Below are positions 3,739 to 56,744 of a DNA stretch of 64,000 nt, piece after piece; the stretch's first letter is position 1, and each line of letters begins with the position of its first letter. Source of the stretch: an uncultured Spirochaetia bacterium (GTDB lineage: Bacteria; Desulfobacterota_D; UBA1144; Nemesobacterales; UBA2774); contig CAZPHQ010000004.1 in the NCBI GenBank assembly GCA_964586675.1, positions 3,031 through 67,030 on the forward strand, read 5' to 3'. The translations under genes were made by a program, and so were the position numbers. The notes below the pieces were generated by a model. That model ran no database searches. It had not been told where the DNA came from and saw only the letters and a program-made list of their open reading frames with translations.

Positions 3739-6585
3739 ATGTCAGAGGCCAAGAAGGTAAATTACAAGGACACGCTGAACCTGCCGCGTACGGACTTCCC
3801 GATGAAGGCCAACCTCGCCCAGAAGGAGCCCGAATTTCAGAAGCGCTGGAAGAAGATCGACCTCTACCAGAGAATCCGTGAGAAATCGGAGGGTAGGGAG
3901 AAGTTCGTTTTTCACGACGGCCCGCCCTACGCCAACGGACCGATACACCTCGGGCATCTCCTGAACAAGGTGCTGAAGGATATTGTCGTAAGGTCGCGCA
4001 CCATGCTCGGCTACGACGTCCACTTCGTCCCCGGCTGGGACTGCCACGGCCTCCCGATAGAGCACAAGGTCTTAAAGGAGCTTGGCGAGGAGGCGAAGGA
4101 CCTTTCACGCCTCAAGATAAGGTATAAGTGCCAGTCGTATGCCGAGAAGTATGTGAAGCTCCAGGCCGGGCAGATGCAGAGCCTCGGCACGACGGGGGAT
4201 TACGAGAATCCGTATCTTACTATGGTGCCTGGGTACGAAGCGGGCGTGCTCGAAGTTTTCGCAGAGCTTTTAAAGCGCGGCCTCATATACAGGGACTTGA
4301 AGCCTGTCCACTGGTCTATAGAAAACAGGACGGCGCTCGCCGACGCGGAGCTGGAATATTACGAAAGAGTAGACAGGAGCGTTTACGTTCTATTCGAAGT
4401 TGAAAATACGGACGCGCTGCCTCCGGGGCTTAATGTCCCGGAGGGCGGAAAGCCTTCGCTTCTGATTTGGACGACGACCCCGTGGACGCTTCCGGCGAAC
4501 CTCGCGGTCGCCATATCGCCTGACGGCGACTACGGGCTTTATAAAGTTACGAAGAACGGAAAGGAAATATTGGCGATACTCGTCGACAATCTCGCCGAGA
4601 CGGTATTCAAGAAGGCCGGGGCGGAAGAGTACGTGAAACTCGGAGGCGCTAAAGGCAGGGACATAGCGGCCGCCGGGGTGAAGTACGTGCACCCCTTCGC
4701 CGGCCGGACGAGCAGGGTTGTCACCGCCGATTACGTACTCTTCGACGAGGGCACGGGGCTTGTACATACCGCCCCCGGGCACGGCGTCGAGGACTACCAG
4801 ACCGGGCTCAGGGAAGGGCTCGACATATACTGCCCCGTTCTCGGCGACGGCACGTTCGACGACACGGTGCCGGAATGGCTCCGGGGCATGGATGTCTGGA
4901 AGGCGAACGGCGTAATCGCCGGGCGTCTCGCGGAATCGGGACACCTCTTCCACGAAGAGGAATACCCGCACAGCTACCCCCACGACTGGCGGAGCAAGTC
5001 GCCGACGATATTCCGCGCGACTGAGCAGTGGTTCATCGCCGTCGATAAGAAAATGGACGAGTTCGGAGGCTCTCTCAGGGACCTCGCGCTCAAATACTGC
5101 GAGTCTGGAATAGACTTCTACCCCGAGTGGGGGCGGAACAGGCTCCGGGGCATGCTCGAATCGAGGCCCGACTGGTGCATAAGCCGCCAGCGCGCGTGGG
5201 GCCTCCCGATACCGGCGTTTGTGAACGATAAGGGCGAGTGCCTTCTCACGCCCGCGTCCGTGAACGTCATAATCGAAAAAATAAGGCAGAAGGGCTCAAA
5301 CCTCTGGTTCCAGGGGGAGGACGAGGAAATACTCGAAGGGTACGACCCGCTCTCCGACCCCGACGCACCGGCATGGGCGAAGGAAGAGGGCGCGCTCGGG
5401 AAGCTCACGCGCGGGATGGACATATTCGACGTTTGGTTCGAGTCGGGCTCGTCGTGGCATGCCGTCCTCGAGCAGAGAGGTATTGGATTCCCGGCGGACC
5501 TTTACCTCGAAGGCTCGGACCAGCACAGAGGATGGTTCCAGCTATCCCTCCTGCCTGCGCTCGGCACGCGCGGAAGGCCGCCCTTCAAAGCGCTCCTCAC
5601 GCACGGCTTCATGGTCGACGCGCAGGGGAGAAAGATGAGCAAGTCCGGCGGGAACGCGCTCGAAGTCGATGAGCTCTTAAAGCAGCACGGAGCCGACATA
5701 TGCAGGTGGTGGGTGAGCTCGCTCAAGTATACGAACGATATAAAAGTCGACTGGGAATTCTTCCGCGTCGCCGGGGACGAGTATAGAAAAGTCAGGAACA
5801 CGATAAGGTTTCTCCTCGGCAACATAAGCGACTTCAACCCCGAGACGGATGCCGTCGGATTCGGAGAGGAGGACAGATATTCCCTCGACGCGTGGGCAAT
5901 GACGGAGCTCGCGAAATTCATACGCGAGACGGTCGAGGCCTACAGCGTCTTCCAGTACAAGCTGGCGAACGAAATAATATTCAGATTCTGCTATGACACA
6001 CTGAGCGCCGTTTACCTCGCAGCCACGAAGGACAGGCTCTACTGCGAGAGGTCTGACAGCCGGAAAAGGCGGAGGTCGCAGACGGCGATGTACCGCATCA
6101 CGGACGCCCTCGTAAGGCTCCTCGCCCCTATACTCGTTCACACGGCCGACGAGGCTTATCTCTCGCTGAAGGGACTCCCCCCGGATTCAGAAGAGAGCGT
6201 TCACCTGACGGGTCTGCCCGAGTTCATTGACGTTCCGTCGGACCAGGCATGGGACGAAGTTCTGGAGCTCAGGGGAAGGGTGCTGAAGGCGCTCGAAGAG
6301 GCCAAGGATGCGCAGGGAATATCCAATCCCCTGGACGCGGGCGTCGAGGTAACTGTTGACGGAGGGCTTTACAAAAAGCTGAAGCCGTTCGAGCCGGAGC
6401 TGCCCGACATCGCGGGCGTGAGCAGGTTCGAGATCCTCGAAGGGAAAGAGGTTCGAATAAAAATCGTCGACCTTTCGGGAGAGCCGCGCTGCGAGCGCTC
6501 GTGGAAGAGGGACGGGACAGTTAAGGAGCGCCCGGGCGGCGGACTACTCTCCGACAGGGACGCCGAAGCGCTGGGCGTGGATTAA
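3739..6585 (+). CDS. ileS: Isoleucine--tRNA ligase
   Basis: Class I aaRS HIGH motif (PYANGPIHLGH) and KMSKS motif. Size ~948 aa with the IleS-typical editing region (GTGLVHTAPGHG) and C-terminal Cys-containing tail. Confidence 0.95.
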   Translation: MSEAKKVNYKDTLNLPRTDFPMKANLAQKEPEFQKRWKKIDLYQRIREKSEGREKFVFHDGPPYANGPIHLGHLLNKVLKDIVVRSRTMLGYDVHFVPGWDCHGLPIEHKVLKELGEEAKDLSRLKIRYKCQSYAEKYVKLQAGQMQSLGTTGDYENPYLTMVPGYEAGVLEVFAELLKRGLIYRDLKPVHWSIENRTALADAELEYYERVDRSVYVLFEVENTDALPPGLNVPEGGKPSLLIWTTTPWTLPANLAVAISPDGDYGLYKVTKNGKEILAILVDNLAETVFKKAGAEEYVKLGGAKGRDIAAAGVKYVHPFAGRTSRVVTADYVLFDEGTGLVHTAPGHGVEDYQTGLREGLDIYCPVLGDGTFDDTVPEWLRGMDVWKANGVIAGRLAESGHLFHEEEYPHSYPHDWRSKSPTIFRATEQWFIAVDKKMDEFGGSLRDLALKYCESGIDFYPEWGRNRLRGMLESRPDWCISRQRAWGLPIPAFVNDKGECLLTPASVNVIIEKIRQKGSNLWFQGEDEEILEGYDPLSDPDAPAWAKEEGALGKLTRGMDIFDVWFESGSSWHAVLEQRGIGFPADLYLEGSDQHRGWFQLSLLPALGTRGRPPFKALLTHGFMVDAQGRKMSKSGGNALEVDELLKQHGADICRWWVSSLKYTNDIKVDWEFFRVAGDEYRKVRNTIRFLLGNISDFNPETDAVGFGEEDRYSLDAWAMTELAKFIRETVEAYSVFQYKLANEIIFRFCYDTLSAVYLAATKDRLYCERSDSRKRRRSQTAMYRITDALVRLLAPILVHTADEAYLSLKGLPPDSEESVHLTGLPEFIDVPSDQAWDEVLELRGRVLKALEEAKDAQGISNPLDAGVEVTVDGGLYKKLKPFEPELPDIAGVSRFEILEGKEVRIKIVDLSGEPRCERSWKRDGTVKERPGGGLLSDRDAEALGVD

Positions 6586-13985: not shown

Positions 13986-15251
13986 TTGGCCTCATTCAGC
14001 TTCATACACACCGCGGACATTCACCTCGACAGCCCCCTCAGGGGCCTCGACGGCATGGAGGGCCCCTCTGTCGAGCGCATCCGGACGGCGACACGGAGGG
14101 CCTTCGATAACCTCATCACAGAGGCCGTGGAGCGGAAAGTGGATTTCGTCATCATAGCAGGCGACCTCTACGACGGCGACTGGCGGGACTACCAGACGGG
14201 GCTCTTCTTTGTCGGCCAGATGGGACGGCTTTCAAGGGCAGGTACCCCGGTGTATATACTTTACGGCAACCACGATGCGGAAAGCCAGATCACGAAGCGG
14301 CTTACTCTGCCCGATAACGTGAGGGTATTTTCAGCGAGAAAGCCTGAGACATTCAGCCTCGAAAACATCAACGTTGCCCTTCATGGGCGCGGGTATTCCG
14401 ACCGCGACATCACGGAGAATCTTGCCGCTTCCTATCCGGCCCCGGTCCGCGGTGCTTTTAACATAGGAGTTTTGCACACGGGAATGGGCGGCATGGACGG
14501 GCATGCCAACTATGCACCATGTGTCCTCGGCGAGCTTCTCGCGAAAGGGTACGACTACTGGGCGCTCGGCCACGTGCACCAGGGCCGCGTGATCAGCGAG
14601 AACCCGCACGTCGTCTTCCCTGGAAATCTTCAGGGGAGGCACATACGCGAAACGGGGCCCAAGGGCGCTTATATCATAGCGGTCGATGATAATGAAATAT
14701 CCTCGTTCGAACCCGTTTACACCGACGTCGTAAGATGGGAGCTTCTCAAGATCGACGCGGGCGGATGCGAGCGTCTTTCGGACATTTACGAGAGGATGCG
14801 GAGCGCGATAGAGGAGGAGGCGGGAAAATCCGATGGCAGGCTCCTGGCCTGCAGGATCGAGCTCTACGGACAGAGCGCGATACACGATAATCTGATAATA
14901 TCGGGCGACAATCTCCTGGCCGAGGCGCACGGAGCGGCTCACGCCCTCGGCGACGGGGCGGCGTGGGTGGAGCGCGTCGTGGTATCGACGGATCCGGACC
15001 GCCGTCATGATACAGACACCGGAGAGATCCTTGGCGATCTTTACGGCATACTGCGCGGCGCGGAGGAGGATGCGGACCTTCAAAATCTTCTTAAATCCGA
15101 TTTAAGCGAAATAATATCGAGGCTGCCGTCCGACATAAGAAGCGATATAGAGGACGCCGTCCTGGGCGCGGCTGTGCAGTCCGATTACCGGGCGCTGGCG
15201 GAGCACACGGGAGAATATTTAAGGGCGCTCCTCAAGACGAGAGAGGGCTGA
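13986..15251 (+). CDS. Metallophosphoesterase / SbcD-like DNA repair exonuclease (YhaO-type)
   Basis: Calcineurin-like motifs FIHTADIHLD, IIAGDLYD, GNHD and GHVH. TTG start; it sits immediately upstream of the large ATPase partner. Confidence 0.75.
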   Translation: MASFSFIHTADIHLDSPLRGLDGMEGPSVERIRTATRRAFDNLITEAVERKVDFVIIAGDLYDGDWRDYQTGLFFVGQMGRLSRAGTPVYILYGNHDAESQITKRLTLPDNVRVFSARKPETFSLENINVALHGRGYSDRDITENLAASYPAPVRGAFNIGVLHTGMGGMDGHANYAPCVLGELLAKGYDYWALGHVHQGRVISENPHVVFPGNLQGRHIRETGPKGAYIIAVDDNEISSFEPVYTDVVRWELLKIDAGGCERLSDIYERMRSAIEEEAGKSDGRLLACRIELYGQSAIHDNLIISGDNLLAEAHGAAHALGDGAAWVERVVVSTDPDRRHDTDTGEILGDLYGILRGAEEDADLQNLLKSDLSEIISRLPSDIRSDIEDAVLGAAVQSDYRALAEHTGEYLRALLKTREG

Positions 15252-15254
15252 GCG

Positions 15255-18200
15255 ATGCGCATACGACGGCTCGACCTCACACGATACGGGTGCTTCACGG
15301 ACAGGCGGCTCGACATACCCGCCATGCCCGCCGACTTCCATATAGTATTCGGCCCGAACGAGGCCGGGAAGTCGACCGCGCTTTCCGCCATCGAAGACCT
15401 TCTGTTCGGGATCGACCCGAAATCGAAATTCGGATTCCTTCACGAGTATAAGAACATGCTGCTGGGCGCGGCGCTCGAAAATGGAGTCGAGACAATAGAC
15501 GTCCGCCGCAGAAAGGGCAACAAGGACACCCTTCTCACGCCGGGCGGCGTCCCAGTGAGGGGAGGGGAGGGTGCCCTCGCGCCTTTTCTGGGCGGAGCAA
15601 GCGAGGAATTTTTCACTCGTATGTTCAGCCTCGACCATATTCGCCTCAGGAGGGGAGGGCAGGAAATCCTCGACTCCGAGAGCGAAGTCGGCCAGACGCT
15701 CTTTTCCGCGGGGACAGGTTTATCGGGGCTAAGAGAGAAGCTCCGGGGTCTGAATGCAGAGGCGGAGGAACTATGGGCTCCAAGAGCACAAACTCGAAAA
15801 TATAACCAAGCTCAGGCCCGTCTCAATGAAGCTGAGAAGGCGATACGCGAGCATACAGTCACGGCTGCCAATTGGCAGGAGCTCAGACGGGCGTTCGACG
15901 AGGCGCAGAAGCACTACCATACGCTCGACGAAGCGAGGAGAAATATCTCACATGAGCTTAGGAAACTGCTCAGAATCCGCCAAATTTATAACTACGTGGA
16001 AGATCTCTCTGATACGGAAAGAAAGATGCTCGAATTGGGTAGTGTTGTAAGATTCCCCCAAAACGCGCTCATCAACTTCGATAAAGCAGAACGCGAGCTC
16101 GACAAGTGGTTACATCAAGCCGGAACTTTAAAGCTGGAGCTAGAAGAGGCGAATACCGAGCTCGAAGGAATGAAATATGACGAGGAACTCCTTCTCCGCG
16201 AGAGCATAATCCTGTCATTCCGCGACCGCCGGATAGAGGTCAGGAAAGAGAGGGTGGACCTCCCCAACCGCGAGGCAGAGCTCGCGGCCGCCAAGGCGAA
16301 TATCAGAAGACTCGCTAGCGAAGCTGGGCTGGAAGGCGACGACGCGGAAGTCCTACTAAATCGCATACCAAAACGGGCAAAGGTGGAGACAACGCGGGCG
16401 CTTCTGAATGCCCGAGGCAAGATAATCTCGGCAATCTCCAACACAAGAGACGGCGCAGTGGAAGTGGAATATCAAATCACAGACTTGGAGCGAAAAATAA
16501 AGAATATGGGCGAGCCCAGAGACATTTCGGGGCTCTCAGCAGTGCTCAGGGCCATACGCGCCGGGGGCGATATTGCATCTCTGATACGCTCGGCCGGGCT
16601 GGAAATGAAAGCCGCCGAAGATGCTGCTGCGCTCCACCTGAAATCACTCAATCCAAGTGTCGAGGAAAACGTGCTCATTGGCGTTTCCGTCCCGATCAGG
16701 GAGGCCGTTCAGAATCACCGCGACGAAAGACGCTCACTCGACCTCAGGGTAAAGCAATGCGAGGAGGAGATTCGTGGCACCGGGCAGGAGCTCGAAAGAT
16801 ACAAAAAAACATATGAACGGCTCTTGAAAGAAGGGCACGCAGTGTCCATCGACGAGCTCGTGAAGGCACGTGAAGCCAGGGACACCGGGTGGTCTCTATT
16901 AAAACGGCGCTACGTCGCGGGTGAGGCCGTGCCGGAGGCGGAAATAGCGGCGTTTACAGGCAGCGAGGCTTCACTGACGGAAGCGTACGAATCCGCTGTC
17001 GTCGAGGCCGACACGACGGCCGACCGACGCTTCGACAACGCGCAGTCTGCCGCAGAGATAACGACAATCTCACGGCAAGTCGCCGAAAAAGAGGAGCTCC
17101 TCGAAAGCCTCTTCAAGAACGAGAGAGCGCTTTCGGAGGATTCGAAGTCACTGGAAGCGGCGTGGAGAAAGATGTGGGAAGGGGCTCCGTTCGAGCCCGC
17201 ATCTCCGGATTCCATGCTCGGATGGCTCGCCGCCAGAAGCGATATAATGAGGCTCGTCGAAAACCGCCTGGAGGCTTCGCGAAGACTTGAGGCCTTATAC
17301 AACGAAGAATCTAAAGCAAAGGCCTCCATAATCGCAGAGCTTTCATGGCTTGCCGCGAACGAATCCGCGCTTGCAGAAAATCCGCTCGGCGTAATTATAG
17401 AAGCCGCGTCCGACATTCTCGCGGAGCACGATAAGAAAGCGGCCCTGAGAAAAGAGCTTCTAGAGAATCTGGCCAAGCTCGAGGCCGAAGCCGAACGGAA
17501 GCGAAGGGCTTTAAAGATCGCCAAAGAAGAGGGGGATTCGTGGCGGGAAAAGTGGGCGGAAGCACTCAGGGCATTAGGTATCTCGGAAAACACTCCGCCC
17601 GAGGAAGCTGCACCCAAGCTAAGCGCCATAGAAGAAATGAGGGAGATCGCGGTCGAAATAAACCATATCCTCTATGAGCGGATCGAAAAGATAAAACGCG
17701 ATATCGAGAACCTTACACATGACGTAAGAAATTTCGTGAGCGCGGCGGCAAAAGACCTCGCAGCCGAAGACGACACCGAAAATGCCGTAATTAAGCTCGA
17801 ACAGCGCCTTGATGAAACGAAAAGAACGAGCGAGCAGAGAAAGGAAAAAGAAAAAGAGATATCCCGGCTCGAACGAAGAATTAAAGAGGCCGGAGACTCG
17901 GCCGCGGAGGCGCGCGAAACTATAAGCTTCCTTCAAAAATCTGGACGGACGGAAAACACCGCTCAATTGCGTGATGCAATCCTGAAATCGGACAAGCTGA
18001 GAGAGCTCGAAGACAAAAAACAGCGCCTGACGGACAGGCTCGTCCAAGACGGCGACGGGCTCAGATTAGAAGAGCTAATTCATGAATGCAGCGGGGCAGA
18101 TATTGAACAGGTCCGGGATAGGATCGAAGAGTTCGAAGAACAGCAGAATGATTTAAAGATACAACTCGAAGCCACAGCTATCGATCTATCGCAAAAGAAA

Positions 18201-18770
18201 AAGGATTTCGAAGCTCTCGGCGGCTCAGGGCGTGCGGCCGAGGCGGCATCGAGGAAAGAATCGGCGATCGCCGAGATGAAGCAGGTTGCCGAGCGCTATG
18301 TCCGGGTCCGCTCGGCCGCCAGAATGCTCGAATGGGCGATTGACCGCTACGGACGCGAGAAACAGGCTCCGCTTCTCGGGCGCGCCGGGGAATTATTCGC
18401 AGCTCTCACGAATGGCTCGTTCTCCGGGCTCGAAATCATATTCGACGAGAACGATCGCACGCGGCTCGCGGGAGTCAGGACCGGTGGCGATAAGGTCGAG
18501 GTCTCTGGAATGAGCGACGGTACGGCCGACCAACTTTACCTGGCGCTTCGCATAGCGGCAGTCGAGGATTATCTCGAAAGCTCGAACGCGCTGCCGTTTA
18601 TCGCGGATGATCTCTTCATTAACTTCGACGACACTCGCTCGGCCGCCGGATTAAAAATACTCGACCAGCTATCCAGAAAAACCCAGGTTCTTTTCTTCAC
18701 CCATCACGCGCACCTCGTCGAGCTTGCGCGTGAAACCCTCGGCGAATCCGTGAATGTCGTAAGGTTGTAA
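15255..18770 (+). CDS. SbcC/Rad50-like AAA ATPase with long coiled coil (YhaN-type)
   Basis: N-terminal Walker A (GPNEAGKST), ~900 aa of coiled-coil-like E/K/R/A-rich sequence, and a C-terminal signature/D-loop region (LPFIADDLFINFDD...VLFFTHHAHL). Confidence 0.75.
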   Translation: MRIRRLDLTRYGCFTDRRLDIPAMPADFHIVFGPNEAGKSTALSAIEDLLFGIDPKSKFGFLHEYKNMLLGAALENGVETIDVRRRKGNKDTLLTPGGVPVRGGEGALAPFLGGASEEFFTRMFSLDHIRLRRGGQEILDSESEVGQTLFSAGTGLSGLREKLRGLNAEAEELWAPRAQTRKYNQAQARLNEAEKAIREHTVTAANWQELRRAFDEAQKHYHTLDEARRNISHELRKLLRIRQIYNYVEDLSDTERKMLELGSVVRFPQNALINFDKAERELDKWLHQAGTLKLELEEANTELEGMKYDEELLLRESIILSFRDRRIEVRKERVDLPNREAELAAAKANIRRLASEAGLEGDDAEVLLNRIPKRAKVETTRALLNARGKIISAISNTRDGAVEVEYQITDLERKIKNMGEPRDISGLSAVLRAIRAGGDIASLIRSAGLEMKAAEDAAALHLKSLNPSVEENVLIGVSVPIREAVQNHRDERRSLDLRVKQCEEEIRGTGQELERYKKTYERLLKEGHAVSIDELVKAREARDTGWSLLKRRYVAGEAVPEAEIAAFTGSEASLTEAYESAVVEADTTADRRFDNAQSAAEITTISRQVAEKEELLESLFKNERALSEDSKSLEAAWRKMWEGAPFEPASPDSMLGWLAARSDIMRLVENRLEASRRLEALYNEESKAKASIIAELSWLAANESALAENPLGVIIEAASDILAEHDKKAALRKELLENLAKLEAEAERKRRALKIAKEEGDSWREKWAEALRALGISENTPPEEAAPKLSAIEEMREIAVEINHILYERIEKIKRDIENLTHDVRNFVSAAAKDLAAEDDTENAVIKLEQRLDETKRTSEQRKEKEKEISRLERRIKEAGDSAAEARETISFLQKSGRTENTAQLRDAILKSDKLRELEDKKQRLTDRLVQDGDGLRLEELIHECSGADIEQVRDRIEEFEEQQNDLKIQLEATAIDLSQKKKDFEALGGSGRAAEAASRKESAIAEMKQVAERYVRVRSAARMLEWAIDRYGREKQAPLLGRAGELFAALTNGSFSGLEIIFDENDRTRLAGVRTGGDKVEVSGMSDGTADQLYLALRIAAVEDYLESSNALPFIADDLFINFDDTRSAAGLKILDQLSRKTQVLFFTHHAHLVELARETLGESVNVVRL

Positions 18771-35417: not shown

Positions 35418-36248
35418 TTAAGCCTTACGGGCTTTCCTTCTGTAGTCTTTACCTTCAAGGTACAGGAACTCGCACATCTCGAAGAGCCGCGACGCTATCC
35501 TCTCCCCTACCCTCGCCTCGAGTATCTCCGTCGTGTCGCCCTTCTCGCGCGCTATCTCGCGCGTGACGTAATTCGTCGTGGCGAGCGTCTGACGCGAGGC
35601 GTTGTAGCGCTTGGATATGAGCTGATCGAGTATGTTGAGCTCCCACTCGCTGCTCCTCCCCTTCCCGAGCTCGTCTATGACGAGCACCTCGGCCTCGACG
35701 AGCGGCAGTATGACGTCGTTCTCCGGCGTGCCTTCAGAGTAGGCCTGCTTAAGCTCGGAGAGGAGATAAAAGAAATCCTTGAACATGCACTTCACGCCGT
35801 GCCCGAGGGTCAGCTCCGCAATCGTGCCGACTGCAAGGTGCGTCTTCCCGAGCCCGGACGCCCCCATGAGCAGAAACCCTTTTTTAGTCGGGAATTTTTT
35901 TACGAACTCCTCCTTGGCATAAATGAGCGCCTTCTGGAGCGACTGGTTCATGGAGCCGGGAGAGAGCCCCGCGTCCACCTGGTTGACGTGTAAGTACTTG
36001 GCCGGGATGCCCGCGCCGTTATATAGCCTGACGTTCCGCCTGACGACCCCGCACGCGGCGCAGGAAGAGATTTTTGCGTACCCGTTCTCGTTCCGTTTCA
36101 TGACGTTGCCGCTGCCCTCGCACGTCTCGCAGTTATCGACGCACTGGCAGAGGACAGCCCGCGCATAGTTCCCGCTCGTCCTGACAGTGTACCCGGCGTA
36201 GTGGCATTCCTCGCACCCGGCGGATTTTTTCTTCTTCGAAAGTATCAA
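35418..36248 (-). CDS. DnaC/DnaI/IstB-like AAA+ ATPase with N-terminal Cys-rich zinc-ribbon domain (putative helicase loader)
   Basis: N-terminus has 10 Cys in CxxC-type pairs (CEEC...CQCVDNCETCEGSG...CAAC). Walker A GASGLGKTHLA, Walker B VLVIDELG and sensor/arginine-finger regions follow as in DnaC/DnaI. Confidence 0.6.
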   Translation of the reverse strand: MILSKKKKSAGCEECHYAGYTVRTSGNYARAVLCQCVDNCETCEGSGNVMKRNENGYAKISSCAACGVVRRNVRLYNGAGIPAKYLHVNQVDAGLSPGSMNQSLQKALIYAKEEFVKKFPTKKGFLLMGASGLGKTHLAVGTIAELTLGHGVKCMFKDFFYLLSELKQAYSEGTPENDVILPLVEAEVLVIDELGKGRSSEWELNILDQLISKRYNASRQTLATTNYVTREIAREKGDTTEILEARVGERIASRLFEMCEFLYLEGKDYRRKARKA

Positions 36249-36249
36249 G

Positions 36250-36903
36250 CTACACCACGCTCTCTATCGAATATTTCCTGCTCAGTATCTCGTTCCTGAA
36301 CGATACCAGGCTCTCGGCATAAGCCTTTTCGGTCATGAGCCGTGCCCTCTCGCCCAGCTTCCCGCGCGCCTCGGCCTCTATCTTCTCCCGCTCTTTTTCC
36401 GGGAGGGATGCGAAGAGCTCGTCCATCGCTTCACCTATCAGTTGCGGTAACGGCGCATCATCTTCGCCGCTCTCCGACTTTAATATGCGTGTCCTGAGGC
36501 CGGAGTAATATTTCTTCACCTGCTCCCTCTTCTCGGACTCGATCAGCCTGCCGAGCCTCTCGGTTATAGAGAGCTCGGGGCCTGCGCCGCTGCCAGTCTC
36601 CGCCATACTTATTCTGCTTTTCACGCCGGGCGCGCCGTACCCGTATTCCTCCGCGCACGTCTCTATGAATTCGGCGCACTGCCTGAGCCCCCTTATCGAG
36701 CCGCCCGGCATGGCCTTCCGCCCCTTGTCGCCGAAGGCCCGGCTTATGCCCCTCATAACTATCTCTTCAGGCAGGCCGGCGTCTCTCCAGCCGCGTATGA
36801 GGTCGTAGTCTATGGATGAGAGCATTATCCCCTCGCCCGCGAGCGAGAGGAAATATTCTTCCACGCGTTTTATATAATTTGCCCCCGGGCTCATTCCTGG
36901 CAT
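36250..36903 (-). CDS. DnaD-domain (DnaB_2 / replication initiation and membrane attachment) protein, probable partner of the downstream loader ATPase
   Basis: LSSIDYDLIRGWRDAGLPEEIVMRGISRAF fits the DnaD C-terminal consensus (LSP.E.E.I..W..E.G...ELI..AL..A). It lies 2 bp upstream of the DnaC-like gene on the same strand. Confidence 0.45.
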   Translation of the reverse strand: MPGMSPGANYIKRVEEYFLSLAGEGIMLSSIDYDLIRGWRDAGLPEEIVMRGISRAFGDKGRKAMPGGSIRGLRQCAEFIETCAEEYGYGAPGVKSRISMAETGSGAGPELSITERLGRLIESEKREQVKKYYSGLRTRILKSESGEDDAPLPQLIGEAMDELFASLPEKEREKIEAEARGKLGERARLMTEKAYAESLVSFRNEILSRKYSIESVV

Positions 36904-37000
36904 AACAATTTTAAACCAATAACGGCTTAACCGGAAGCGGGCGCGAATCCGGGAAGCCGTGGGCTCCGCGCTAACGGCAGTCGCGGCAGCGCGGAACGGC

Positions 37001-37672
37001 TTATTTACCCGAGACCGCTTTTCTCATGAGAGCTATGGTTTCGGCGTAGCTTTCCGTGTGAAAGATGCCCGAGCCGGAGACTATGGCGTCCGCGCCGGCC
37101 TCGGCTATGACGTGTATGTTGTCGAGCTTTATGCCGCCGTCCACTTCTATAAGCGGCTTATGCTCCGAGCGGTCGATGATATCCCGGAGCTTTCTCACCT
37201 TCGGCACCATCGAGTGTATGAACTTCTGCCCGGCGAACCCCGGCTCGACAGTCATTATCAATATCATGTCGACGTACTCGAAAACCTCTTCGAGGGCGGA
37301 GAGCGGCGTAGTCGGGTTGAGCGCTATTCCTGCGCTCACTCCCCGCGACTTGATCGCCGATATAGTGCTGTAGAGGAGCTTGCAGGTCTCTATCTGGACG
37401 GTTACGCCCCGGACAGCGTCGCCGCCGGCGTCGATGAACTTTTCCACGAACTCGTCCGGGTTGTCTATCATAAGGTGTATATCCATCGGCGGTGGGTCCG
37501 ACTTCGCGAGGGATTCGACGACCGGGATGCCTATGCTGATGTTCGGAACAAAATGCCCGTCCATGACGTCCACGTGAATCCAGTCGGCCCCGGCCTCCTT
37601 AACCGCCCTGACCTCGTCCCCGAGCTTGGCGAAATCCGCAGAAAGTATTGACGGCACTATTAATTTTTTCAT
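37001..37672 (-). CDS. rpe: Ribulose-phosphate 3-epimerase
   Basis: PSILSADFAKLG...HVDVMDGHFVPN N-terminal signature. TIM-barrel size ~223 aa. Confidence 0.9.
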   Translation of the reverse strand: MKKLIVPSILSADFAKLGDEVRAVKEAGADWIHVDVMDGHFVPNISIGIPVVESLAKSDPPPMDIHLMIDNPDEFVEKFIDAGGDAVRGVTVQIETCKLLYSTISAIKSRGVSAGIALNPTTPLSALEEVFEYVDMILIMTVEPGFAGQKFIHSMVPKVRKLRDIIDRSEHKPLIEVDGGIKLDNIHVIAEAGADAIVSGSGIFHTESYAETIALMRKAVSGK

Positions 37673-37897
37673 TGTATCCTTCCCGTTGCTTGTTTTTCGG
37701 GACCGCCTTCCCCCCGATTTCCGGGTACGGATTATACCATGCCATGCCGCCCGTGGAAAAATCTCCCCCGCGCCGCCGTAAATCCCCGGAGCGAGGGGCC
37801 GATACGCGCCTCCCGGGCTTCTTGACAGGGCTTTTAAAACTATTTACGCTATCCCGTTTTGTTACAAAATACTCATTCCATACAAAGGACTTAATAC

Positions 37898-40358
<2,461 letters not shown>

Positions 40359-40377: not shown

Positions 40378-41265
40378 ATGAACGACCTTCTCGACTCATT
40401 CCTTTCGTTTCTGGTGGTTGAAAAAGGTCTTTCAGAAAACACGCTGGAATCTTACGGGAGGGACCTTAAAAAGTTCCTCCTTTTTATTGAATCCCGGGGC
40501 ATAACCTCCGCCCGCGAAATCAGGTACGGCGACATACTCGACTTCATGACCCATTCCCGCGAGGAAGGCCTCGGCGCGACCTCGATCGTGAGGAGCATGG
40601 TCTCGGTGAAGCAGTTCTTCAAGTACCTCCTCTCGGAGAAGGTGCTCTCCGAGGACCCGACCGCTCACATAAAAACCCCGAAAATGAAAAAGGCCATACC
40701 CGGCGTGATATCCCTGGACGACGTCGAGAGCATACTCGGCGCGCCCGACGAATCCACCCCCGAGGGGCTCCGCGACGCCGCCATGCTGGAGATTCTATAC
40801 GCGACGGGGATAAGGGTGTCGGAGCTTATCGGGCTCAAGCTGAACGATGTCAACTTCGAGCTCGGCTTCGTCGTCGTTTACGGCAAGGGCTCTAAGGAGC
40901 GGGTCGTCCCCATAGGGGATAAAGCCAGGGACAAGCTCCTTTTATACCTCCGCGATTCGAGGCCCGCGCTCCTCAAAGGCCGGGAGTCGAAGGCCCTCTT
41001 CGTCACGCGGCGCGGCGCCGGGATGACAAGGCAGGGGTTCTGGAAGATAATAAAGGCCCAGGCGCTTAAGGCCGGGGTAACGAAAAAGATAAGCCCGCAT
41101 ACCCTCCGGCACTCGTTCGCGACTCATCTGCTGGAGCGCGGGGCCGACCTCAGGACAATACAGATAATGCTCGGGCATTCAGACATTTCGACGACCCAGA
41201 TTTACACCCACGTCGAGAGCGAGCGCCTGAAGGAGATTCACAAAAAATATCATCCGAGATCGTAA
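40378..41265 (+). CDS. xerD: Tyrosine site-specific recombinase XerD
   Basis: N-terminal SAM-like core-binding domain (LSENTLESYGRDL); catalytic R...HxxR...Y tail (HTLRHSFATHLLERGADLRTIQIMLGHSDISTTQIYTH). Confidence 0.85.
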   Translation: MNDLLDSFLSFLVVEKGLSENTLESYGRDLKKFLLFIESRGITSAREIRYGDILDFMTHSREEGLGATSIVRSMVSVKQFFKYLLSEKVLSEDPTAHIKTPKMKKAIPGVISLDDVESILGAPDESTPEGLRDAAMLEILYATGIRVSELIGLKLNDVNFELGFVVVYGKGSKERVVPIGDKARDKLLLYLRDSRPALLKGRESKALFVTRRGAGMTRQGFWKIIKAQALKAGVTKKISPHTLRHSFATHLLERGADLRTIQIMLGHSDISTTQIYTHVESERLKEIHKKYHPRS

Positions 41266-52977: not shown

Positions 52978-53256
52978 ATGGGTTGCCCGTATAAAGCCAT
53001 AGCAGACGATACGAGAAGGAAGATCCTCGAGTTTTTAAGCGAGGGCGAAAGCGCAGCAGGAGATATCGCAAGCAAGTTCGATATATCCAAGCCCGCTATC
53101 TCGAACCATCTGAAGATTTTAAAGGAAGCCGATATTGTCAACGAGCGGAAGGTCAGACAAAACCGGCTTTATTCCTTAAACGGCGATATGATAAACAACA
53201 TGAAGTTCTTTCTCACATCGCTGACGGGGAAAGGCAGTCAGAATCTGAGGGCATAG
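52978..53256 (+). CDS. ArsR/SmtB-family winged-helix transcriptional regulator (paralogue 1)
   Basis: DDTRRKILEFL...GDIASKF.ISKPAISNHLKILKEADIV is the canonical ArsR HTH. No alpha-3 CxC metal site; Cys3 only. Confidence 0.8.
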   Translation: MGCPYKAIADDTRRKILEFLSEGESAAGDIASKFDISKPAISNHLKILKEADIVNERKVRQNRLYSLNGDMINNMKFFLTSLTGKGSQNLRA

Positions 53257-53448: not shown

Positions 53449-54513
53449 ATGCCCGGTATAGTTTCAGCAGGCACCAATGACGCTCCGCATGCTTACCGGC
53501 AGACGGAGCTCAAGAGAATTGCGCGCGATCTCTTCTCAAAAAAGGGCCGCGACTTCAGAAGGCTCCTCGACGTCTTCGACAACTCGCTCATAGATTCGCG
53601 CCACTTCATTAATTCGCTCGGGTGGTTCGAGGCTCCTAAGAGCTTCAAGGAGAGGTCTATATCCTATGCCGAGAACGCAGCGTCGCTCTCGCTCCCGGCT
53701 ATAAAGTCCTGTATGGAAAGCGCCGGCGCCGATTACGGAGACTTCGATCATATTATCTTCGTGACGAGCACGGGCATCTCGGCGCCGTCGGCCGACGCTC
53801 TAATACTGAACGAGCTCGGGCTCGACAGGCACGTCAGGCGCACACCTATCTGGGGGCTCGGATGCGCGGGCGGCGCGGCCGGCATGAGCAGGGCCTACGA
53901 ATACGCAAGGGCGTTCCCCGAAAGCGCAGTCCTCCTCGTGGCCGTGGAGATGTGCAGCCTCGCCTTTCACGACGACGATTATTCGAAGAGTAACGTCGTG
54001 TCGCTCGCCCTCTTTTCAGATGGCGCAGCCGCCGTGCTCGTCGCCGGGGATAAGCACAGGCTCTTCGGGAAGTCGAAGGCGCGGATGACTCGGACCCTCT
54101 CGACGACCTGGCCCGATACGCTCGACGTGATGGGCTGGGAGATTGTGGACGACGGGCTCCGCGCGATATTCAGCAAGGACATACCGTCCATCGTCAAAAG
54201 CCGGATCAGGGAGAATATAGACGAGCTCCTGGGTCCGGAAAGACTCGACGCTGCCGACCTCCGGCACTTCGCCGTTCATCCCGGCGGCCCCAAGGTGCTG
54301 AGTGAATTCGAGGCGGCGATCGGGCTCGGAGAGGGAGCGTTCGAATATTCGAGGAAGGTGCTCCGCGAGCACGGAAACATGTCGTCCCCGACAGTCCTCT
54401 ACGTCCTCAAGGAGATACTCGAAGCCGAGGATTTTAATGAAAGCGATTACGGAATAATCTCCGCCCTCGGCCCCGGGTTCAGCTCGGAGCTCGTGCTGCT
54501 CGAATCCGCATGA
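53449..54513 (+). CDS. Type III polyketide synthase (chalcone/stilbene synthase superfamily; alkylresorcinol/alkylpyrone synthase-like)
   Basis: Catalytic Cys in GLGCAGG, His in FAVHPGGPKV, Asn in GNMSSPTVLYVL. ~354 aa, typical of bacterial type III PKS. Confidence 0.85.
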   Translation: MPGIVSAGTNDAPHAYRQTELKRIARDLFSKKGRDFRRLLDVFDNSLIDSRHFINSLGWFEAPKSFKERSISYAENAASLSLPAIKSCMESAGADYGDFDHIIFVTSTGISAPSADALILNELGLDRHVRRTPIWGLGCAGGAAGMSRAYEYARAFPESAVLLVAVEMCSLAFHDDDYSKSNVVSLALFSDGAAAVLVAGDKHRLFGKSKARMTRTLSTTWPDTLDVMGWEIVDDGLRAIFSKDIPSIVKSRIRENIDELLGPERLDAADLRHFAVHPGGPKVLSEFEAAIGLGEGAFEYSRKVLREHGNMSSPTVLYVLKEILEAEDFNESDYGIISALGPGFSSELVLLESA

Positions 54514-55833: not shown

Positions 55834-56277
55834 ATGCTGAGATATATATTTCAGACAAATGACGATGCGGCCGCGCTTATCGCAAGGCTCGCGCTCGGTA
55901 TTGTAATACTTCCTCACGGGCTTCAAAAGCTGCTCGGGATGTTCGGAGGGGCGGGCTTTACAGGAACCGTCGACTATTTCGTCAGCAGCGGAATACCTGC
56001 ATTCCTGGCTGTTCTGATAATCCTGGGCGAATCCTTCGGCGCGCTCGGGCTCATAATCGGTTTTCTAAGCCGTGTCGCCGCCCTCGGTATAAGCATCATA
56101 ATGCTGGGCGCGATAGTTACAGTGCATGTCAAGTTCGGCTTTTTTATGAACTGGGCGGGTACGCAGGCCGGAGAGGGTTTCGAGTTCCACATTTTAGCCA
56201 TAGGTCTCGCACTCGTCGTCCTCATCAAGGGCGGAGGACTATGGTCCGTAGACAGGGCCATAACAAAGTCGGCCTAG
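55834..56277 (+). CDS. DoxX-family membrane protein
   Basis: LARLALGIVILPHGLQKL and following TM helices are typical of DoxX. Confidence 0.8.
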   Translation: MLRYIFQTNDDAAALIARLALGIVILPHGLQKLLGMFGGAGFTGTVDYFVSSGIPAFLAVLIILGESFGALGLIIGFLSRVAALGISIIMLGAIVTVHVKFGFFMNWAGTQAGEGFEFHILAIGLALVVLIKGGGLWSVDRAITKSA

Positions 56278-56483: not shown

Positions 56484-56744
56484 ATGGGATGCAGCTTTAA
56501 AGCACTTAGTGACGAGCGCAGGCGCATGATCCTCTCCATACTCGGCGAGAACGATGCTTGCGCCGGCGATATAGCGCGCAAGTTTTCTATATCACAGCCT
56601 ACAGTTTCGAATCATTTGAAGATACTCAAGGAAGCAGGACTCATCACAGAGCAGAAGATCAGACAGAACAGGATTTATTCCCTTCACAAGCCCGGTATTC
56701 AAAATGTGATAGAGACCCTCAAAAGCATAGTCAAAGAATCTTAG
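56484..56744 (+). CDS. ArsR/SmtB-family transcriptional regulator (paralogue 2, ~60% identical to the one at 52978)
   Basis: DERRRMILSIL...GDIARKFSISQPTVSNHLKILKEAGLI; both paralogues start MGC..KA. Confidence 0.8.
   Translation: MGCSFKALSDERRRMILSILGENDACAGDIARKFSISQPTVSNHLKILKEAGLITEQKIRQNRIYSLHKPGIQNVIETLKSIVKES

Follow-up and report, generated by a model that had tools for sequence, protein, structure and literature searches.

We suggest that two adjacent minus-strand genes at positions 35418-36903 of the DNA presented above probably form a resident, vertically inherited module that loads the replicative DnaB helicase. The stretch analysed (the window) comprises 64,000 nucleotides of contig CAZPHQ010000004.1 from assembly GCA_964586675.1, an uncultured Spirochaetia bacterium. 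The upstream gene encodes a DnaD-like partner protein of 217 residues and the downstream gene a DnaC-type AAA+ ATPase of 276 residues; the list of open reading frames (ORFs) confirmed both, with the strand and coordinates given in a preliminary description made from the sequence. The ATPase was assigned by profile and structure matches and by invariant motifs, the partner by domain matches across its family, and the residency of the pair by synteny in related genomes. The doubled cysteine module of the ATPase is new, the family of the partner is unannotated, and the closest known protein is the Aquifex-type DnaC.

ATPase family assignment and conserved motifs

The ATPase belongs to the Pfam family IstB_IS21 (PF01695; 60.9 bits against a cut-off of 24.1, E=1.7e-16, residues 121-275) and matches phrog_50, 'DnaC-like helicase loader' (E=3e-38), in agreement with the preliminary description of a DnaC/IstB-type AAA+ protein. 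Every NCBIfam score was far under its cut-off (PRK08116, 102 bits against 189; the IS21 IstB helper NF038214, IS21_help_AAA, 66.5 against 200; the DnaI equivalog NF006505, 51.9 against 228; the E. coli-type DnaC equivalog NF005931, 49.4 against 357), and therefore the protein lies outside the curated PRK08116, IstB, DnaI and E. coli DnaC groups. The best match among solved structures is Aquifex aeolicus DnaC's AAA+ domain (3ECC, E=1.2e-23), with ATPase residues 101-270 aligned to residues 16-185 of 3ECC. Weaker matches in the PDB are E. coli DnaC (6QEL, 6.6e-11), a DnaI-type 'putative primosome component' (9e-11) and the IstB of IS5376 (4e-9). The alignment to 3ECC is near-gapless, which hints that the initiator/loader-specific helical insertion (ISM) may be present in the ATPase.

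We detected 702 homologues of the ATPase, the closest in metagenome-assembled genomes (MAGs) named Candidatus Dadabacteria or Thermodesulfobacteriota. Invariance of motifs and cysteines was read from an alignment of 29 homologues with 55-91% identity, in which the Walker A, Walker B, TTN and arginine motifs are all invariant (Table 1). E. coli DnaC is a member of the same PF01695 family, and an arginine motif of the type GER(I/V)xSR(L/M) is presumably common to it and the window ATPase. E. coli DnaC is not known to have a zinc module or a DnaD-like partner. A role of the ATPase as a defence component was considered and rejected, the only PADLOC result being a weak match of the generic ATPase core to DrmD (2.6e-5).

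The name of the Pfam family, shared with IstB of IS21 and IS5376, and the IS21_help_AAA match (E=2.7e-18) could mean that a degraded IS21-family element once stood here and that the ATPase is its surviving IstB transposition helper. We regard this as extremely improbable: the helper score is well below the equivalog cut-off, IstB structures are weaker PDB matches than Aquifex DnaC, and the matched IstB chains are without a zinc module. No IstA ORF or remnant flanks the gene, where the neighbours abut (rpe/DnaD-like on one side and the histone deacetylase gene on the other, at distances of 1 and 3 bases), no grouping with IstB was found, and the locus is conserved across genomes.

The N-terminal 66 residues of the ATPase carry eight cysteines (C12, C15, C34, C36, C40, C43, C63 and C66), invariant in the 29 homologues. 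The other two, C154 and C259, are inside the AAA+ domain, so the approximately ten cysteines that the preliminary description counted in the first 70 residues are those of the whole protein. From their spacing, the eight cysteines probably form two zinc sites. The module had also been called DnaI-like; judged from its sequence and predicted fold, it is not. No DnaI_N domain was detected in the ATPase with Pfam or with the profile and model of the module, the same profile and model gave no significant match to DnaJ, DnaI-N or any other fold, and the predicted fold consists mainly of beta-hairpins; the DnaI equivalog score given above is far too low as well. The similarity of the CxxCxGxG region to DnaJ is not significant (E about 0.07-2). 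The doubled, eight-cysteine version was detected in Dadabacteria, Nitrospina and one further lineage (locus L163 in our numbering of loci and contigs), and among the matches listed the acidobacterial and Aquificales ATPases have a single ribbon, CxxCxGTGW...CxC.

The DnaD-like partner protein

The true start of the partner is likely Met4 (36894), giving a protein of 214 residues, because homologues and gene callers begin there. The protein alone has no match in Pfam or NCBIfam, and the sole PHROG match of the whole sequence is phrog_7498, 'DnaD-like helicase loader' (E=3.6e-5). Its isolated N-terminal domain scores 15.1 bits against DnaB_2 (PF07261), under the cut-off of 22. The 86 close homologues are all annotated as hypothetical, carry no Pfam domain and come from the same MAG lineages. 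An exhaustive profile search extended the family to 1498 clusters at 50% identity (E<=1e-3), or 303 at E<=1e-10, and the matches are mostly full-length proteins of 200-280 residues.

We scanned the N-terminal domains of 88 diverse family members one by one. Of these, 79 match phrog_7498 (best E=1.2e-14), 50 match phrog_16826, also a 'DnaD-like helicase loader', and 21 match Pfam DnaB_2 (best 3.5e-5); no further family recurs among the 88. Because of these PHROG and Pfam matches across the family, we assign the N-terminal domain as a divergent domain of the DDBH2 type, an assignment that is solid at the level of the family only. The preliminary description had read a DnaD/DnaB_2 consensus in the 217-residue protein itself. 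The DnaD-like character stands for the family, whereas the protein's own DnaB_2 score stays below threshold; because of this score and the lack of a DDBH1 domain, the partner is not a DnaD orthologue.

The AlphaFold (AF2) model of the partner (overall predicted local distance difference test, pLDDT, 79.8) consists of the N-terminal domain, a disordered linker and a helical C-terminal domain. The model is all-helical, with no strand, and thus gives the partner no beta-wing; no DDBH1 winged-helix domain was found in the protein, the DDBH2-like part of which starts at residue 6. The C-terminal domain has no match to a known fold. Matches of the whole-partner profile to ComR and haemagglutinin in the PDB were rejected as coiled-coil noise from the linker and the C-terminal domain.

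Synteny and inheritance of the pair

The preliminary description left a choice between the native system of the lineage and a solitary remnant of a mobile replication module, and proposed to look at the locus in relatives. We found the pair at the same place in five further distinct Dadabacteria/Thermodesulfobacteriota genomes (L001/L002, which are copies of one locus, L003 and L005-L007), with rpe, metK, ahcY, xerD, the M50 peptidase gene and scpAB on one side and the histone deacetylase gene, folC, fur, pdxJ and glmM on the other. ATPase identity is 69% on a 3.1-Mb contig, 62% on a 1.78-Mb contig, 59% in GCA_973788895.1 and 56% in two further genomes. The rpe gene precedes the pair in L001, L002 and L005, and was also found in L006 and L007. 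In L005 rpe and the DnaD-like gene are separated by the gene for a 301-residue tetratricopeptide repeat (TPR) protein (5042-5947 of that locus), for which no DciA domain is listed.

Across the syntenic genomes the identity of the ATPase (56-69%) is at the level of housekeeping proteins (Rpe 62-68%, PdxJ 64-67%, histone deacetylase 51-73%, FolC 41-52%), and the partner diverges faster, at 30-41%. The pair has a G+C content (GC) of 0.58 and a third-position value (GC3) of 0.73-0.80, both within the range of the neighbouring genes, so the proposed check of composition and codon usage at 35.4-36.9 kb revealed no anomaly. Among 2.9 million viral contigs the nearest relatives of the ATPase are at most 33% identical. 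Because of the synteny, the native GC and GC3, the housekeeping-level conservation of the ATPase and the distance of the phage relatives, the pair is chromosomally resident and vertically inherited in the Candidatus Dadabacteria (Thermodesulfobacteriota) lineage, as the first of the two alternatives had it. Conserved position and species-congruent distribution, by which resident loaders were recognised in an earlier survey (Brezellec 2016), were both found in these five genomes.

That a phage or plasmid replication module integrated recently and left only this pair behind is, accordingly, very unlikely. The order of a DnaD-like and a DnaC-like gene is typical of phage replication modules, and a tyrosine recombinase gene (40378-41265) is located 4 kb from the pair. 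However, synteny persists among Dadabacterial genomes whose ATPases are as little as 56% identical, conservation is at the level of housekeeping genes, composition is native, and homologues are not confined to prophages. The pair is surrounded by housekeeping genes, as had been described: Pfam confirmed Rpe, a histone deacetylase family protein (Hist_deacetyl), a FolC-type Mur ligase, MetK, AhcY, Fur, an XerC/D-type recombinase, an M50 peptidase, ScpA and ScpB, and no transposase or phage structural gene was seen nearby. The recombinase gene is 0.7 kb upstream of scpA/scpB, with the M50 peptidase gene between them, and this arrangement is itself syntenic in relatives; because of this position and synteny the recombinase is XerC/D-like in its behaviour.

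Distribution of the module and its phage relatives

Relatives of the ATPase were collected by a scan of species-representative genomes. Among the matches listed they occur in Nitrospina (39-40% identity), many Acidobacteriota (25-37%), Dormiibacterota and Aquificales/Hydrogenothermaceae (29-34%). A DnaD-like gene is directly upstream of the ATPase gene in 6/6 Dadabacterial loci (counting both copies of L001/L002) and 2/2 Nitrospina loci, and is absent from all 76 other listed loci within flanks of up to 6 kb a side (shorter on small contigs). The partner ORFs of Nitrospina (L008, 5651-5971; L009, 5618-5995) have about 105-125 codons. The Nitrospina partner appears to be the DnaD-like N-terminal domain alone, without the C-terminal helical domain.

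Through the partner family we reached an overlapping pair in three more distant lineages (L161-L163), again in housekeeping contexts. The gene order is birA-coaX-[pair]-guaB-guaA in L161 (GCA_024277675.1) and asd-[pair]-guaB-like in L162, and the two genes overlap by 4 bases in L161 and L163. In Blastocatellia (L004) the partner gene stands alone after birA-coaX, and Pyrinomonadaceae MAGs contain both module genes, with the ATPase gene elsewhere. Because the DnaD-like gene follows birA-coaX in both L004 and L161, with the ATPase next to it only in L161, the two genes may have been separated from an ancestral operon.

The fragment of A. aeolicus DnaC shares 43-48% identity with Aquificales MAG proteins; with acidobacterial ones it shares 33-41%. 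In a crude neighbour-joining (NJ) tree without support values, the cellular ATPases form one cluster, Aquifex DnaC among them, and most phage proteins fall outside it. In this tree two IMG/VR contigs come close, L086 nesting inside the cellular cluster and L094 branching at its edge (no bootstrap support); the DnaC-like protein of L086 shares 37.5% identity with Aquifex DnaC. The two contigs may represent phage relatives near the source of the cellular genes, or misclassified cellular DNA.

By structure match and tree position, the ATPase probably belongs to the same broad clade as Aquifex aeolicus DnaC (3ECC/3EC2), and the Aquificales homologues (L058, L062 and L067) have an N-terminal cysteine ribbon too, CxxCxxTGW...CxC. 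The differences are also clear: identity to Aquifex DnaC is only about 30-35%, the module is doubled to eight cysteines in the window ATPase against four in Aquificales, and the window ATPase has a dedicated DnaD-like partner, none of which was found within 3-6 kb of the Aquificales genes. The Aquificae have one PF01695 protein and no dciA (supplementary table of Brezellec 2016, PMC5109545).

Phage replication modules that combine a DnaD-like protein (phrog_7498/16826) with a DnaC-like loader (phrog_50) match the pair in both domains and in gene order. Three IMG/VR contigs (L109, L110 and L113) each have a gene for the DnaD-like domain, which matches the family profile at E about 2e-17, and this gene overlaps one for a zinc-ribbon DnaC-like protein. 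The phage partner has 295 residues and a C-terminal DnaD-like domain, and its N-terminal region resembles, in our reading of the sequence, a winged-helix DNA binder; in the cellular partner the DnaD-like domain is N-terminal and followed by a different helical domain. ATPase identity to the phage proteins does not exceed 33%, and the cellular genes are in fixed housekeeping contexts. Judging by the shared profiles and order, the cellular pair is homologous to the phage initiator-adaptor and loader module.

Acidobacterial and Dormiibacterota ATPases are encoded directly downstream of dnaK-dnaJ and a MerR/HspR-type regulator gene in 17-23 species-level loci among the matches listed, and Bryobacterales ATPases follow the biotin carboxylase and biotin carboxyl carrier protein (BCCP) genes of acetyl-CoA carboxylase. 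Because these contexts are fixed, the acidobacterial ATPases look resident, not mobile. The chaperone-linked loci belong to a sister clade in lineages that keep DciA. They raise the alternative that the conserved AAA+ protein and its partner have a non-loading role, in other DNA-protein remodelling or linked to chaperones, and that the likeness to DnaC and DnaD comes only from a common origin with phage replication proteins. The CxxCxGxG motif is reminiscent of DnaJ, and neither the zinc module nor the partner C-terminal domain matches a known fold, which is compatible with such a role. We nevertheless consider it unlikely: the closest characterised relative of the ATPase is a helicase loader, the partner domain is specifically the one that adjoins DnaC-like loaders in phage replication modules, every library names its matches as helicase loaders, and the DnaJ similarity is, as noted, not significant.

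Gene layout and other features of the window

The coordinates of the pair, its domains and motifs, and the adjacent elements are collected in Table 1. The partner stop codon and the TTG start of the ATPase gene are 1 base apart, and because of this gap the junction is consistent with translational coupling. The rpe gene is on the same strand, 97 bases upstream of the partner gene. The promoter-like site 5' of rpe was found once in a consensus scan for which 1.1 sites are expected by chance, and the terminator-like hairpin 3' of the ATPase gene is likewise a consensus match within chance expectation. The histone deacetylase family gene converges on the ATPase gene with a gap of 3 bases.

Table 1. 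Positions of the ATPase-partner pair, its domains and motifs, and adjacent elements in the window
Feature	Position	Strand	Basis
DnaD-like partner ORF, 217 aa	36250-36903	-	ORF list
N-terminal four-helix DDBH2/DnaB_2-like domain of partner, residues 6-86	36646-36888	-	AF2 helices 6-22, 30-41, 46-62 and 73-86, pLDDT 82-92
C-terminal helical domain of partner, residues 113-210, with invariant R-x-R-x-M-T-x2-A-x2-E-S-x2-S-F-R-x-E	36274-36567	-	AF2 model, alignment
Gene junction TAG-C-TTG	36246-36252	-	sequence reading
DnaC-type AAA+ ATPase ORF, 276 aa, TTG start	35418-36248	-	ORF list; PF01695 E=1.7e-16
N-terminal 8-Cys module of ATPase (CxxC, CxC, CxxCxGxG, CxxC)	36051-36215	-	Cys invariant in alignment
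AAA+ domain	35424-35957	-	motifs invariant in alignment; aligns to 3ECC
Walker A GASGLGKT (K135)	35841-35864	-	invariant in 29 homologues
Walker B VLVIDELG (D192, E193)	35664-35687	-	invariant in 29 homologues
TTN motif (N226), sensor-I-type polar residue	35571-35579	-	invariant in 29 homologues
GERIASRL arginine motif (R250, R254)	35484-35507	-	invariant in 29 homologues
rpe (ribulose-phosphate 3-epimerase), first gene of putative operon	37001-37672	-	PF00834 E=1.2e-77
Sigma-70-like promoter match upstream of rpe, TTTCCA-17-TATAAT with extended TG	37731-37759	-	consensus match
Terminator-like hairpin followed by T-run, directly after ATPase stop codon	35392-35409	-	consensus match

Antisense ORFs overlap rpe and metK (36959-37651, plus strand, 230 codons; 38000-39085, minus strand, 361 codons) and are almost certainly spurious products of high GC3. 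The cumulative GC skew of the 64-kb window peaks at about 33-35 kb, beside the pair, and then falls. As a replication landmark this peak was rejected: it is probably not one, the turn tracking gene orientation in a 64-kb window.

Elsewhere in the window, a type III polyketide synthase gene (53449-54513) and a DoxX protein gene (55834-56277) lie between two paralogous ArsR-type regulator genes (52978-53256 and 56484-56744). The lowest GC of the window, 0.46-0.49 at 55-57 kb, is between these regulators, and the same arrangement was found in a 137-kb contig (L164). At 13986-18770 a metallophosphoesterase gene (421 aa) is followed by a gene for a 1171-residue AAA_27/AAA_23 protein, forming an SbcCD-like or YhaO/YhaN-like nuclease-ATPase pair.

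Discussion

The proposed function of the pair follows the known loaders. By analogy with DnaC and DnaI, the N-terminal cysteine module would bind two zinc ions and dock on DnaB, and the AAA+ domain would oligomerise with ATP and single-stranded DNA and open or assemble the helicase ring. The DnaD-like adaptor may bridge the loader to the initiator/origin complex or to stalled forks. The putative winged-helix N-terminal region of the phage partner would have been replaced in the cellular partner by the C-terminal helical domain that is conserved in the lineage.

Bacillus subtilis DnaI with DnaD/DnaB has the same logic of an AAA+ loader with DDBH2-domain adaptors, to which the DnaB_2-like N-terminal domain of the partner corresponds. 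The zinc-binding N-terminal domain of DnaI contacts the helicase (PMC2673437). The window pair differs in that the ATPase is without DnaI_N and scores far below the DnaI equivalog, with eight cysteines in a predicted fold of mainly beta-hairpins, and the partner lacks the DDBH1 winged helix and has an unrelated C-terminal domain. DciA (DUF721), the ancestral helicase operator, and the Vibrionaceae loader VdhL presumably have the same cellular role as the pair, the proteins being unrelated. Virus-derived loaders of the VdhL type entered chromosomes with 'preprimosomal' dnaD-like or lambda-O-like genes (PMC11087808), and phage modules are the proposed source of resident DnaC/DnaI (PMC5109545).

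Several points weigh against helicase loading by the pair. The partner's own DnaD homology is under the Pfam threshold, and the family profile of its N-terminal domain found no DnaD chain in the PDB. Among the relatives of the ATPase and partner, experimental data exist only for the Aquifex AAA+ domain. No dnaA, dnaB or dciA gene was recognisable among the window ORFs, about one third of which were checked against Pfam, and the link to the helicase is for this reason by homology only; a further 10 kb past one window end likewise contain none of the three, only metabolic genes.

The relation to DciA is the most important of these points. Since 2016 helicase loading in bacteria has been described as a dichotomy between an ancestral DciA, found in most phyla, and DnaC/DnaI loaders of phage origin that took its place in a few. 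Coexistence of resident dna[CI] with dciA was reported never to occur, and resident dna[CI] was listed in five phyla only (Brezellec, PMC5109545). The supplementary table of the same survey shows PF01695 together with dciA in Acidobacteria, among them Granulicella MP5ACTX9, Terriglobus saanensis and Solibacter (PMC5109545), and DciA-TPR fusions have been reported in Nitrospinae. Pyrinomonas has DciA, and Pyrinomonadaceae MAGs carry both module genes. Relatives of the module thus appear to coexist with DciA in Acidobacteriota and Nitrospinae, which conflicts with the mutual exclusion of DciA and DnaC/I, and this clade may not be a primary loader. Either the DciA exclusivity rule has exceptions, or the ATPase clade is accessory or different in role.

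If the pair does load DnaB, we lean slightly towards its being the chief origin loader in a lineage that has lost DciA. A second loader beside DciA, with a role in restart or another specialised function, is only a little harder to support and would be readily conceivable. More speculatively, and on balance doubtful, the cassette may be an unrecognised, ancient and widespread helicase-loading system, present in operon form in Dadabacteria, Nitrospinota and at least three further lineages, as unlinked genes in Acidobacteriota, and with the ATPase only found in Dormiibacterota and Aquificota, including Aquifex DnaC, the partner family comprising about 1500 clusters at 50% identity and the system coexisting with DciA in several phyla. 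If so, strict exclusivity would be broken, and two loaders could divide the labour between origin and restart.

We found no published account in the literature of the helicase loaders of Dadabacteria or Acidobacteria, and the Dadabacteria were unsampled by the 2016 survey. The locus described here probably provides this lineage with a resident DnaC-type loader and its own DnaD-like adaptor, and ties that loader to a broader clade with Aquifex DnaC and conserved acidobacterial genes. It would thereby bring loaders of this type into phyla presumed to depend on DciA, to which they are unrelated. If the pair loads DnaB, it would represent at least one more event of loader fixation, Aquifex-type DnaC would gain a candidate partner family that is at present unannotated, and the clade would offer a natural test of the coexistence of DciA with an AAA+ loader. 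If it does not, the pair would be a conserved AAA+/adaptor system for which the annotation 'DnaC' or 'IstB' is a mislabel.

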